A stretch of 64,000 nt of DNA. Origin: Escherichia coli. Its GTDB lineage: Bacteria; Pseudomonadota; Gammaproteobacteria; Enterobacterales; Enterobacteriaceae. Made by a program: the position numbers and the translations under genes. The stretch lies in the NCBI RefSeq assembly GCF_013315695.1, contig NZ_CP054353.1, one strand, 5' to 3'. Positions 1,456 to 20,039 of the stretch are shown one piece after another. The notes beneath the pieces are model-generated. The model did not search any database and had not been told where the DNA came from. It was given only the letters and a program-made list of their open reading frames with translations. Within the stretch, counting starts at the first letter, position 1; each line of letters opens with the position of its first letter.

Positions 1456-1481
1456 TGTTGTCGGAGAACGGTGAGAACAGG
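1456..1481 (+). promoter_or_regulatory. Candidate Ogr-dependent late promoter element upstream of FI
   Basis: TGTTGTCGGAGAACGGTGAGAACAGG lies about 65 bp upstream of FI start; a near-identical 26-mer (23 of 26 positions) recurs upstream of P at 20014..20039. Confidence 0.4.
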
Positions 1482-1545
1482 CAGCGCGTGAATGCGGGGC
1501 TGTTTTTCGGGAGGATGTCGCCACACAAAACACCAGGAGGTGCTC

Positions 1546-2727
1546 ATGAGTGAAACACGCTTTCACGGTGCACGCGTCAAAGAAAACACCGACCTTGTGA
1601 CCGCGATTAATGACATTGATTCCAGTGTCATCGGTATCGTGGCCACGGCGGACGATGCAGACAGCGACGCGTTCCCGTTAAACAAACCCGTATTGATCAC
1701 CCGCGTGGCGAATGTGCTGGGTAAGGCAGGCACAACAGGCACGCTGTACAAAACGCTCAAGGCGATTTCCGACCAGACCAGCCCGAAGGTTATCGTGGTG
1801 CGTGTGGCTGAAGCCGGAGAGGAAGGTGAGACACAGGATCAGCTTGTCATCGGTGGCTCGCAGGCTGACGGCAGCTACACGGGCATGTATGCCCTGCTGG
1901 TTGCTGAACAGGACGAGAGCATTGGTTACCGCCCGCGCATTCTGGCGGCTCCCGGCCTGGATACCGAAGCAGTCACATCCGCCCTGTGCGTCATTGCGGA
2001 CAAGCTCCGCGCCTTTGTGTACGCCGGATGTAACGGGTGCGACACGATGGCGGAGGCAATCACTTACCGTGCGAAGTTCTCCGCGCGTGAGCTGATGCTG
2101 CTGTGGCCTGACTTCATTGCCTACAACCCGGTGAGCGGAAATAACGAAACATTTCCGGCAGCGGCGTATGCGTGCGGGTTGCGTGCGCGGATTGACAGTG
2201 AACAGGGCTGGCACAAGTCACTGTCCAACGTGGCGCTGAAAAATGTTCTCGGTATGTCGCAGCAGGTGTTCTGGTCGTTGCAGGCCGAAGACAGTGATGC
2301 GAACAACCTGAACAACAAGGAAATCACCACGATTATTCGCCGTAACGGCTTCCGCTTCTGGGGGAACCGTACTGCCGAAACCAGCGACTACATCTTTGAG
2401 GTGTACACGCGCACAGCGCAGATTCTGGCAGATACCATCGCTGAGGCGCAGTTCGAAACCATTGACGAACCGCTGACCCCGGCGAACGTGAAGGACGTGA
2501 TTAGCGCCATCCGCGCAAAACTCAACGCCCTGGTCACCGCCGGGAAACTCATCGGTGCGGAGTGCTGGTATGACGTGCTGGACAACGGCACGACGGATTT
2601 GCGTCAGGGGCGCGTGCGCATCCGCTACAAGTACACGCCAGTGCCGCCGATGGAAGATCTGACGCTGTATCAGACCTTCACGGATGAGTATTTCGACTCC
2701 GCTTTTGCAACGCTGGGAGGTGCGTAA
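1546..2727 (+). CDS. FI: Contractile tail sheath protein FI
   Basis: MSETRFHGARV...FPLNKPVLI...GFRFWGNRT...YTPVPPMEDLTL closely resembles P2 FI; RBS GGAGG upstream of ATG 1546. Confidence 0.9.
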   Translation: MSETRFHGARVKENTDLVTAINDIDSSVIGIVATADDADSDAFPLNKPVLITRVANVLGKAGTTGTLYKTLKAISDQTSPKVIVVRVAEAGEEGETQDQLVIGGSQADGSYTGMYALLVAEQDESIGYRPRILAAPGLDTEAVTSALCVIADKLRAFVYAGCNGCDTMAEAITYRAKFSARELMLLWPDFIAYNPVSGNNETFPAAAYACGLRARIDSEQGWHKSLSNVALKNVLGMSQQVFWSLQAEDSDANNLNNKEITTIIRRNGFRFWGNRTAETSDYIFEVYTRTAQILADTIAEAQFETIDEPLTPANVKDVISAIRAKLNALVTAGKLIGAECWYDVLDNGTTDLRQGRVRIRYKYTPVPPMEDLTLYQTFTDEYFDSAFATLGGA

Positions 2728-3243
2728 ATGGCTGTACCACGTTACGTTCGCCAGTTCACGCTGTTTGTGAACGGCAAAAACAAAATCGGCACGGTGACAG
2801 GCGTCACTCTGCCCAAGCTGACCCGAAAAACCGAAGCCTATCGCGGTGGCGGGATGCTGGGTGCGGTGCATATTGACCTCGGACTGGATGACGGCGCACT
2901 GGATGCCTCGTTCACCACCGGTGGGGTTGAAAAAGAGCTGCTCCAGGAATACGCCACTGACATTAACGAAGTGGCGCTGCGCTTTGTGGGTGAGCTGTTC
3001 ACCGATGGTGAGGAAAGTCAGCTCCTTGAGGTGGAGATGCGCGGACGCATCACGGAAATCGACCGTGGCGAAACCAAACAGGGCGACACCACACAGTACA
3101 CCTTCGCCGTCAAAAACACCTACTACAAGGAGTCGGTGGATGACAGTGATGTGACAGAAATCGACCTGCTGAACTTCATCTACAAAAAAGACGGCCAGAA
3201 CGTCTTTGGTGACCGCGTGAGTTCGGCGCTCGGTCTGAACTGA
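2728..3243 (+). CDS. FII: Tail tube protein FII
   Basis: 171-aa ORF immediately after FI, as in the P2 FI-FII pair; size matches P2 FII. Confidence 0.85.
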   Translation: MAVPRYVRQFTLFVNGKNKIGTVTGVTLPKLTRKTEAYRGGGMLGAVHIDLGLDDGALDASFTTGGVEKELLQEYATDINEVALRFVGELFTDGEESQLLEVEMRGRITEIDRGETKQGDTTQYTFAVKNTYYKESVDDSDVTEIDLLNFIYKKDGQNVFGDRVSSALGLN

Positions 3244-3289
3244 CAGCATTAACAGGGCGGCACATTGTGCCGCCACAGGAGAAAGAAAA

Positions 3290-18007: not shown

Positions 18008-19069
18008 TCAGTCTTCGTGATGGCTTTCATCAGCCAGTTTCAGCCCCGTGATAAGGGCGCACTTGCCGAAGTCTTCCACCACCCACGCATCGTTGGAGGA
18101 CTGATAGGTTGCGATGCGGTTGTAGTCCGGCTCTTCACGCATCAGACGACGTAATGCTCCCACCTGGTAGTAGATGGACAGGTTGTCGAACGAGGTGATG
18201 AGCAGCGCGTCTTTCGGGAAGAACGGCGCGAGATATACCGGCAGACCACCAATCAGGCGTGAGGAGGTAATCAACTGACCGGCCATCAGTTCCGTGTTCG
18301 GCGCGGCGGCACTCATGGCGTTAATGAGTGGCAGGCGCAGCGTGTTGAACAGGTCGCGTCCCATCATCACCACAAGGTCGGATGAATCCTTGTACCACTC
18401 ATCCAGCAGTGATGAGCGCGCATCCTGTACCAGCGCGTCCGGGTTGTTGTACTTGCCTTTGTAGGTGACGGCGTTGTCCATATCGCGTGCCGTAATGGTG
18501 ACATCAGACATCACGCGCTGGGCTGCATTCTGGCGGATGCTTTCCAGCCAGCCCACGCCACAGTCCTGCAACAGCGGGTTACTGCTGCGGTCGGACTTCA
18601 CGGCGCGGGACGTGCCGTTGAAACCAATCATGATGCGATCAAGGGCGATACGGCGGGCAATCTGCGCGCTGACCCGAGCCTGAAAATCCGGGTGTGCGGA
18701 CCACGCGTCCAGTTGTGCGTAGCTGATAAATGTGTCGTAGTTGACCTGCTCGCAGGCGTACTGGCGTGCCGCCAGCTCGTGGAGTGATGCCGGTTCGCGG
18801 CGCTCACTTGTACTGGTGTTCACACTGGCAGACGGACCGTTGATGCCGATCAGGACTTTTTCGCCTTTCTGGTCGGTCACACCGATGACGTTGATTCTTT
18901 GCAGCAGCTCGTCGCTCTGCTGAATGGCGTTTTCCATGCGCTGCTGCACGGCGGGCTGAACGTTAAAACGCTGAGCAAGCGCTGCGGGAGAAACATTGTT
19001 CATGCCCGCCTGCTGCTGCATATACATCGCCAGAGCGCCACGGGTGGTGGATGAAAGAGTCAGGTTCAT
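18008..19069 (-). CDS. N: Major capsid protein N
   Basis: 353-aa ORF at the P2 N position, matching size. Confidence 0.85.
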   Translation of the reverse strand: MNLTLSSTTRGALAMYMQQQAGMNNVSPAALAQRFNVQPAVQQRMENAIQQSDELLQRINVIGVTDQKGEKVLIGINGPSASVNTSTSERREPASLHELAARQYACEQVNYDTFISYAQLDAWSAHPDFQARVSAQIARRIALDRIMIGFNGTSRAVKSDRSSNPLLQDCGVGWLESIRQNAAQRVMSDVTITARDMDNAVTYKGKYNNPDALVQDARSSLLDEWYKDSSDLVVMMGRDLFNTLRLPLINAMSAAAPNTELMAGQLITSSRLIGGLPVYLAPFFPKDALLITSFDNLSIYYQVGALRRLMREEPDYNRIATYQSSNDAWVVEDFGKCALITGLKLADESHHED

Positions 19070-19078
19070 GGTTAATCC

Positions 19079-19948
19079 TCAGAAATCACAGGCGGTGTAA
19101 GCAATGCCGCCGCCGGTTACGCCAGTGTGAGCAGGTGCGTCAGCGCCCGTTGCGGAGAAGCGCTGATGCGTGTCGCTGTCCTGTGCCTGTAGCTGCGTAC
19201 GTAGCGTGGTCAGTTCGCGGGTCAGACGGGTGATTTGTGCGCGGTCTTCGTCGCGCTGGCGTTCCTGTGCGTTGAAACGGTCAAGCAGGTCAGCGTGCGC
19301 AGAGGCCACGCGCTCCACAACGTCACGCATCTGCGCAAACTGTTCGCCGTCCGTTTTACGGCTGCCGCTGATGAGGTTCATGACACGCGCGAACCACTGA
19401 ACGCCTTCGTCGTTCTGGCGCTGGTTCAGGGCAATGACGCCAGCCTCAATGGCATCGGTGAAAAACGGCGGCTCACACTGCTGATTGTTAAACGCCATCG
19501 CCTGCGCACGCTGCTGTGCGGCAAACTGCAGACGCTCAGTGCCAAGACTTGCCGGGCTGTCGGTCATCGCCAGTCCCTGAACATACGGTCCGCCCGTGAT
19601 GAATGACTGCGGGTAAAGCTCGATGCTGGCATAAATCTTTTTGCCGTCATCCAGCAGTTTCTTCATGCGTCCGGTGGGTTCAATTTCGGCATACAGCGCC
19701 GTGCGTCCCGCCAGCGGCCCGTCAGTGATGTCTTCTGCGCTCAGTGCCACCACATCCCCCATCGCCGCGAAGGCGCTGTCCGGGTGCGGTGAAAGGATGT
19801 GCTCAACGTTCACACGTGCGCCGTAGACGGACGGGTCATAACTGGCGGCGGCAGCTTTCAGCATGTCGCCACAGATTTCGCGCCCGTCTGAGGTCGTACC
19901 GGAAACGGCCACGCGGAATTTTTTTCGTTCAGGTTTCTTGTCTGCCAT
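19079..19948 (-). CDS. O: Capsid scaffolding protein O
   Basis: Start at MADKKPERKKF with GAGGAGG RBS; 289 aa, close to P2 gpO size. Confidence 0.8.
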   Translation of the reverse strand: MADKKPERKKFRVAVSGTTSDGREICGDMLKAAAASYDPSVYGARVNVEHILSPHPDSAFAAMGDVVALSAEDITDGPLAGRTALYAEIEPTGRMKKLLDDGKKIYASIELYPQSFITGGPYVQGLAMTDSPASLGTERLQFAAQQRAQAMAFNNQQCEPPFFTDAIEAGVIALNQRQNDEGVQWFARVMNLISGSRKTDGEQFAQMRDVVERVASAHADLLDRFNAQERQRDEDRAQITRLTRELTTLRTQLQAQDSDTHQRFSATGADAPAHTGVTGGGIAYTACDF

Positions 19949-20013
19949 ACGGCCTCCTCGAATATCGTTGTGCTCATGATGACGCGCCCTGCGGCCCGCG
20001 CTCAACGCGGCGT

Positions 20014-20039
20014 TGTTGTCGGAGAACCGCCAGAACAGG
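20014..20039 (+). promoter_or_regulatory. Candidate Ogr-dependent late promoter element upstream of P
   Basis: TGTTGTCGGAGAACCGCCAGAACAGG about 50 bp upstream of P start, 23 of 26 positions identical to the element upstream of FI. Confidence 0.4.

Follow-up and report, generated by a model that had tools for sequence, protein, structure and literature searches.

A P2-like prophage of Escherichia coli, related to P88 and Xuanwuvirus and contained within the 64 kb stretch of DNA that was analysed (henceforth the window), carries two closely similar 26 bp elements. Each is very probably a site for the prophage's own Ogr-type activator, positioned around 56 bp upstream of two divergent activator-dependent promoters. 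On the basis of the sequence, each site probably drives two back-to-back late operons, such that the four late promoters would most likely be served by two shared dyad sites. The flanking genes were assigned through Pfam matches (Ogr_Delta, Phage_GPD, sheath, GPO and terminase). In the gene order of the prophage, ogr and D run leftward and are followed by FI-FII-E-T-U running rightward; further along, an operon running leftward from O to G is followed by P-Q running rightward. The cognate Cys4 zinc finger activator gene is present in the prophage itself, adjoining D, and its product has a CX2C-X24-CX4C zinc finger motif. The same late operon layout surrounds both sites in P88 and in a prophage of E. 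coli strain 135, and P2-like prophages of the P88/Xuanwuvirus type were found in many of the searched E. coli genomes and IMG/VR contigs.

Table 1. Predicted activator sites, promoter-like motifs and adjacent genes in the window.
Feature	Position	Strand	Evidence or remark
ogr homologue, Cys4 zinc finger type, truncated at window edge	1..215	-	Pfam Ogr_Delta PF04606, 1.3e-13
Gene D (tail/late control D)	268..1383	-	Pfam Phage_GPD, 2e-17
D-facing extended -10: TG (1426-1425), G, GAGTAT (1423-1418)	1418..1426	-	TG and A2/T6 hexamer in 12/12
26 bp element 1, TGTTGTCGGAGAACGGTGAGAACAGG, D/FI spacer	1456..1481	+	Matrix score 31.8 bits over 1453-1482
Site 1 core, TGT-N12-AGA, centre 1467.5	1459..1476	.	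Anchored comparison, 12 non-redundant relatives
FI-facing -35-like GTGAAT	1488..1493	+	Consensus of relatives; GTGA conserved at +21..+24 from centre
FI-facing -10-like GAGGAT, +44..+49 from centre, predicted start ~1523	1511..1516	+	A2, T6 in 12/12
Gene FI (tail sheath), first of FI-FII-E-T-U	1546..2727	+	Pfam
Gene O (capsid scaffold), first of O...G operon	19079..19948	-	Pfam Phage_GPO, 7e-83
O-facing -10-like CATCAT, 45-50 nt from centre, predicted start ~19969	19976..19981	-	CATGATG invariant, 7/7
26 bp element 2, TGTTGTCGGAGAACCGCCAGAACAGG, O/P spacer	20014..20039	+	Matrix score 28.9 bits over 20011-20040
Site 2 core, TGT-N12-AGA, centre 20025.5	20017..20034	.	Comparison with relatives
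P-facing -10-like TAGCCT, +45..+50 from centre, predicted start ~20082	20070..20075	+	A2/T6 in 7/7
Gene P (large terminase), first of P-Q	20100..21842	+	Pfam

The two elements lie where the original prediction placed them and differ at three positions, being identical at the other 23. Their location 50-70 bp upstream of the first genes of late operons was also borne out, with 65 nt between the end of element 1 and the FI start codon (ATG at 1546) and 61 nt between element 2 and that of P (ATG at 20100). A degenerate search of both strands of the 64 kb, allowing up to three mismatches, found only these two matches to the 26-mer pattern. A weight matrix was then used, trained only on relatives (18 non-redundant sites, none of them from the window); scanning both strands of the window revealed exactly the two sites (Table 1). 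The third-best score, 13.4 bits, corresponds to the reverse strand of site 1. That the 26-mers are alike by chance is already refuted: the pattern had no matches in 100 dinucleotide shuffles, giving an expectation of zero, and the independent matrix places both sites more than six standard deviations above the shuffle maxima, which average 13.2 bits. The bare motif TGT-N12-A[CG]A shows no enrichment (24 observed against 27 expected in 34 kb), and its only intergenic occurrences in the late region are the two sites. Neither the matrix scan nor the bare motif search detected an intergenic third site of the pV type in the 11 kb O...G operon; the window is without a pV equivalent and has only the two candidate sites. 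In P88, the matrix scan gave only a sub-threshold pV-type match, of 15.9 bits at 18638.

Both the matrix scan and the core search indicate one site per spacer, and each is central, the D/FI spacer (1384-1545) having its midpoint at 1464.5 and the O/P spacer (19949-20099) at 20024. The window core is a one-base variant, matching at five of six positions, of the P2/186/P4 activator site TGT-N12-ACA, cited in PMC3931495 as the consensus of the late promoters of these phages. In relatives the corresponding right half is either ACA or AGA, and it can differ between the sites of one phage. The suggestion that the two forms reflect different activator specificities was rejected because a single phage has both (AGA at L006, ACA at L089). 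Read more fully, the motif TTGTTGT-N12-A(G/C)AAC forms a partial dyad, in which the matrix information is asymmetric, the TGTTGT half being much richer than the right half. The functional core would appear to comprise around 18 bp together with a T-rich flank on the left, rather than 26 bp.

A scan of viral contigs with the O protein yielded only four loci, and the P protein served as query in its place. Across the 80 D/FI and 77 O/P spacers compared from IMG/VR, the TGTTGT and A[CG]AAC motifs and the flanking -35- and -10-like boxes are constant, while the remaining spacer diverges; the relatives share descent, and part of this conservation may be inertia. Offsets were measured in non-redundant representatives (12 for D/FI and seven for O/P) in alignments anchored on the motif, which is circular for the site itself but not for the -10 offsets. 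On all four sides, hexamers with A2 and T6 are found 44-50 nt from the centre, in 12/12 representatives for FI, 12/12 for D (where GAGTAT, at 45-50 nt and accompanied by the TG, predicts a start at ~1411), 7/7 for P and 7/7 for O. These hexamers predict starts approximately 56 bp from the centre, compared with 55.5-58.5 in the mapped P2 promoters. A scan for consensus sigma-70 promoters found none in 1-1700 and none in 19700-20300, so neither spacer has one, as would be expected of promoters that depend on an activator. As the sites are central in divergent spacers, with mirror-symmetric -10 hexamers, they are most likely used for O and D-ogr as well. The original prediction had noted that the D/FI spacer lacks an equivalent D-facing element; there is indeed no second copy, the same dyad merely giving a weak score on the reverse strand, and this is because the dyad site is most likely common to both directions.

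The closest parallel is P2 itself, the record of which (NC_001895) has a single 'activator binding site; pO, pP promoters' at 3057-3087. Starts have been mapped at 3016 and at 3127, both 55.5 nt away from a core centre that we read as 3071.5. This corresponds to window site 2 in lying centrally in the orthologous O/P divergent spacer, with both promoters ~55-56 bp away, in its TGTTGT left half and in its 12 bp spacing; by our reading of the sequence, a TAGCCT -10 hexamer also lies at the corresponding place upstream of the mapped pP start. However, P2 has CCA rather than AGA as its right half, the TGTTGT half is proximal to P rather than to O, and P2 Ogr is only 40% identical to the window's homologue. 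The P2 pF site (17555-17583) resembles window site 1, being upstream of FI with identical TTGT-N14-AAC spacing, the TGTTGT half distal to FI and the centre ~57 bp from the mapped start. Yet pF is unidirectional, with D and ogr downstream in one operon, whereas D-ogr in the window is inverted and faces away across the site. In our alignment, the annotated P2 sites have CCA (pO/pP and pF) or CAA (pV) at the same 12 bp spacing. When the lineage matrix was run on P2 as a positive control, it did not detect the annotated sites; hence it is lineage-specific and cannot establish membership alone, and the likeness to P2 rests on the left half, spacing and position.

More distant systems show the same core. 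The Delta sites of P4 Psid and PLL share it together with a similar flank (P4 9531-9548, within TGTTGTTGTC...ACA), although the right half at Psid is ACA and there are two tandem sites, as opposed to AGA and one site per spacer in the window. In the Stenotrophomonas phage Smp131, a single stretch of 18 bp has been assigned to pP' and pO' alike (PMC3931495), such that one TGT-N12-ACA-like site would serve both divergent promoters; this is a prediction in both cases, and Smp131 is a distant phage of a distant host, with four sites as against two in the window lineage. The P88 paper does not mention promoters and gives no account of the late ones.

An alternative we regard as unlikely is that the Ogr sites act in one direction only, towards FI and P, with D-ogr, O or both being transcribed from Ogr-independent promoters. 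The D-facing promoter could be of this kind, since an extended -10 (TG-n-GAGTAT) can function without an activator; furthermore, comparison of the D-ogr gap revealed a conserved -10-like box of ogr's own (TAAAAT, fitting TAnAAT, at 261-256), and the far more informative TGTTGT half gives the site a polarity. Against this, every representative has its -10 hexamers at equal distances to either side of the site, neither spacer has another candidate site or consensus promoter, and P2 pO and pP share one annotated site with starts mapped on both sides of it. Constitutive expression of D-ogr would, moreover, turn on the late genes in the lysogen.

Far less probable again is that the 26 bp identity was left behind by recombination or gene conversion between the two spacers, or marks the site of another phage or host protein such as Cox, the C repressor or IHF, and so has nothing to do with an activator. 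The two sites have nine of the 12 spacer bases in common, beyond what a consensus needs and against 1-4/12 in phages of the P88 group, and in close relatives a mosaic patch of ~35 nt starts inside the O/P site. Across diverse relatives, however, the conserved positions are exactly the two half-sites, TGT and A[CG]A, whose spacing and whose distance from the -10 hexamers are fixed; the position agrees with that of the annotated P2 activator sites; and in the matrix scan the motif is missing from the early/immunity region on which Cox and C act. The 9/12 identity recurs in the same clade in an unrelated pair of sites with a different spacer, and the window spacer has an AGAAC of its own, which lies 9 bp upstream of the AGAAC at the right half-site. 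It is conceivable, if doubtful, that the cognate Ogr variant reads the spacer or a third half-site, and that gene conversion is not the source of the similarity. The original prediction of Ogr-responsive late promoter sites is supported by position, the TGT-N12-A[C/G]A core, conservation, operon context and the ogr gene next door.

Under this preferred reading, of activator sites shared by divergent promoters, we infer that the Ogr-type zinc finger protein would bind the partial dyad between two weak sigma-70 promoters and recruit RNA polymerase via the alpha subunit C-terminal domain; genetics of Ogr and this domain (rpoA109) are reported as cited in PMC11434276. Site 1 would then direct transcription of FI-FII-E-T-U rightward and D-ogr leftward, the latter exerting positive feedback on ogr, and site 2 that of P-Q rightward and O...G leftward.

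A bidirectional shared site has already been mapped in P2, and the paradigm established there is unchanged; what is added is a coordinate-level map of late control for P2-like prophages of the P88/Xuanwuvirus type, of use in prophage annotation, in predicting cross-activation by P4-like satellites and in engineering. Were the spacer or a third half-site read by the activator, the zinc finger activators of the Ogr/Delta type would gain both a new mode of recognition and a new determinant of specificity. If the main prediction is true, two activator sites govern all four late operons, with D-ogr forming a feedback loop.

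A P2-like prophage in an E. coli chromosome occupies the first ~34 kb of the window, and the host flank, the ppsA region, matches several E. coli genomes at 100% identity. Among named phages the nearest is P88 (Xuanwuvirus), with ~75% nucleotide identity; identity rises to 90-94% in E. coli prophages, and the D protein encoded by one IMG/VR contig is 99% identical. In this prophage D and ogr read away from FI, whereas in P2 they do not; hence both copies of the 26-mer lie in divergent spacers. The identical layout is found in P88, the E. coli strain 135 prophage and every one of the 80 IMG/VR relatives recovered by a search with the D protein. 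Adjoining gpA, as also in P88, is an actin-like partition gene of the ParM/StbA type (24804-25763, minus strand), and downstream of Q there is a DUF3800 ORF (23450-24256, plus strand).

Coordinates of prophage genes, divergent spacers and predicted -10 hexamers (offsets in bp from the site centre)
Feature	Position	Strand	Basis or detail
ogr	215..<1	-	Pfam
D	268-1383	-	Pfam
D/FI spacer	1384-1545		divergent
-10, D-facing	1426-1418	-	TG-G-GAGTAT; offset 44-49 or 45-50; A2+T6 12/12; TG at -15/-14 12/12
-10, FI-facing	1511-1516		GAGGAT; offset 44-49; A2+T6 12/12; TG at -15/-14 0/12
FI	1546-2727	+	Pfam
U	7275-7760	+	Pfam
V	13317-13898	-	Pfam
R	14514-14996	-	Pfam
O	19079-19948	-	Pfam
O/P spacer	19949-20099		divergent
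-10, O-facing	19981-19976	-	CATCAT; offset 45-50; A2+T6 7/7; TG at -15/-14 5/7
-10, P-facing	20070-20075		TAGCCT; offset 45-50; A2+T6 7/7; TG at -15/-14 0/7
P	20100-21842	+	Pfam
Q	21842-22891	+	Pfam
gpA	25840-28713
integrase	32586-33710

Rfam matches above the gathering score were found in the early region to the C4 antisense RNA (29432-29519, 79 bits) and isrK (29555-29629, 63 bits). Together (29432-29629, minus strand) these overlap the 5' part of an ORF (29069-29686), the N-terminal ~110 aa of which match PHROG 'transcriptional regulator/repressor' families; a P2-like phage may here carry an immunity module of the P1/P7 c4/antirepressor style.

The original prediction was that a 26-bp element shared by the regions upstream of FI and P represents candidate Ogr-responsive late promoter sites. 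Both copies are present (site 1, 1456-1481; site 2, 20014-20039), their three mismatched positions all falling within the central spacer. A degenerate pattern allowing up to three mismatches matched just these two places on both strands of the whole window, and nowhere in 100 dinucleotide-preserving shuffles; the match is real, not a chance one. A 30-column weight matrix, built from 18 non-redundant sites in relatives and excluding the window's own, scored sites 1 and 2 at 31.8 and 28.9 bits. The next-best match (13.4 bits) was the reverse strand of site 1, all others scoring 12.3 bits or less, and maxima on shuffled sequence averaged 13.2 bits (sd 2.4). The bare six-base core occurs in the prophage no more often than expected (24 found, 27 expected), and its only intergenic occurrences within the late region are these two sites. 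By the matrix scan and the intergenic core count, the motif is not scattered over many places outside promoters, an outcome that would have counted against the original prediction. P88 and the strain 135 prophage each have exactly two strong matrix sites, in homologous places. No pV-type third site exists in this lineage, in which V overlaps S and R begins 9 bp after lysC.

Across D/FI spacers from 80 relatives and O/P spacers from 77, the invariant sequences were a left TTGTTGT and A(C/G)AAC exactly 12 bp past the second TGT. In several relatives the textbook TGT-N12-ACA dyad occupies this position (L007, as GTTGT-N12-ACAAC, L017 and L029), while the window and others have TGT-N12-AGA. One phage (L006/L089) carries AGA at D/FI and ACA at O/P, hence these are equivalent variants, and the idea that they confer different specificities was rejected. 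TGT-N12-ACA is the published consensus for P2 Ogr/Delta-dependent late promoters, as given in PMC3931495 with reference to Christie & Calendar 1985 and Julien & Calendar 1995, and the P4 Psid region carries TGTTGTTGTC-...-ACA. From this consensus and the conserved positions, the functional cores are therefore predicted at 1459-1476 (centre 1467.5) and 20017-20034 (centre 20025.5). At and just past the O/P right half-site, a tandem AACAGG AACAGG (20034-20045) yields a second ACA 6 bp downstream. In L088-L090, a mosaic patch corresponding to 20019-20060 begins midway through the activator site and extends to the P-facing -35 region, with ~35 nt swapped for unrelated sequence despite P proteins 98-99% identical to the window's; TGT-N12-ACA is nonetheless restored.

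The 26-bp match exceeds the length that the consensus requires. Both sites share 9 of the 12 spacer bases in the window and the near-identical L004/L084, 8 in L006/L089, and 9 in L014/L167, an unrelated pair whose spacer differs, against 1-4 in the P88-group phages (n=11). The window spacer also holds an inner AGAAC, 9 bp ahead of that in the right half. This identity could stem from gene conversion involving both spacers, or from read-out of the spacer by the activator.

Spacers were anchored on the site centre, representatives with <85% mutual identity were kept (12 D/FI, 7 O/P), and a -10 model was scored at every offset on each side. Hexamers emerged on both flanks of both sites, the remainder of every spacer having diverged among the representatives. 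As these end 49-50 bp from the centre, transcription should start ~56 bp away, near 1523 (FI), 1411 (D), 20082 (P) and 19969 (O). Neither spacer contains a consensus sigma-70 promoter, as expected of activator-dependent promoters. The observation that no second element faces D was correct, and is explained if the central dyad site is, most likely, common to both directions, like P2 pO/pP. The P2 RefSeq record is an experimental precedent for such sharing: it annotates one 'activator binding site; pO, pP promoters' (3057-3087), in which we read the core as TGT-N12-CCA, its centre (3071.5) 55.5 bp from each mapped start (3016, P; 3127, O). Our readings of the annotated pF and pV sites likewise centre ~57 bp from mapped starts. 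P2's own sites, which the lineage matrix fails to pick up, differ in having CCA or CAA as the right half rather than AGA, and in how the TGTTGT half is oriented at O/P. The elements show every testable feature of P2-family late activator sites (core, spacing, position relative to the -10, late-operon context, cognate activator and lack of consensus promoters), and are predicted to behave like them. The sequence evidence supports the original reading as Ogr-type sites, a kind already known, refined to just two sites, most likely shared and bidirectional, with 18-bp cores.

The cognate activator would be the window's Ogr homologue, which is 40% identical to P2 Ogr and contains the Ogr_Delta domain (Pfam) along with a CX2C-X24-CX4C motif. 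Its gene lies directly downstream of D in the window and 71 of the 80 relatives, some with cargo between the two; an extra 1-2 kb in L016, L024, L061 and L079 marks the junction as a cargo insertion point. By tblastn, P88 (L001, NC_026014) has an unannotated ogr directly downstream of D (34479-34691, plus strand), encoding a protein 63% identical to the window's. After the D stop codon, the D-ogr gap contains a TAnAAT -10-like box (256-261, minus strand), conserved in the relatives examined and with no recognisable matching -35, which is probably an Ogr-independent promoter of ogr, the counterpart of P2's separate one.

We found no published description of the predicted D/FI bidirectional arrangement, which would result from D-ogr being inverted in this lineage; the P88 paper does not discuss promoters. 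Under the proposed circuit, ogr would be expressed first from its own promoter, and Ogr would then bind each site and, at about -56, activate RNA polymerase on either side, presumably via the alpha C-terminal domain, to which P2 ogr/rpoA109 genetics point in a passage of PMC11434276. Four late units would thereby be switched on from two sites, with the D-facing promoter reading through into ogr as positive feedback; the circuit would be functionally like that of P2, where the F operon and ogr transcript use one terminator.
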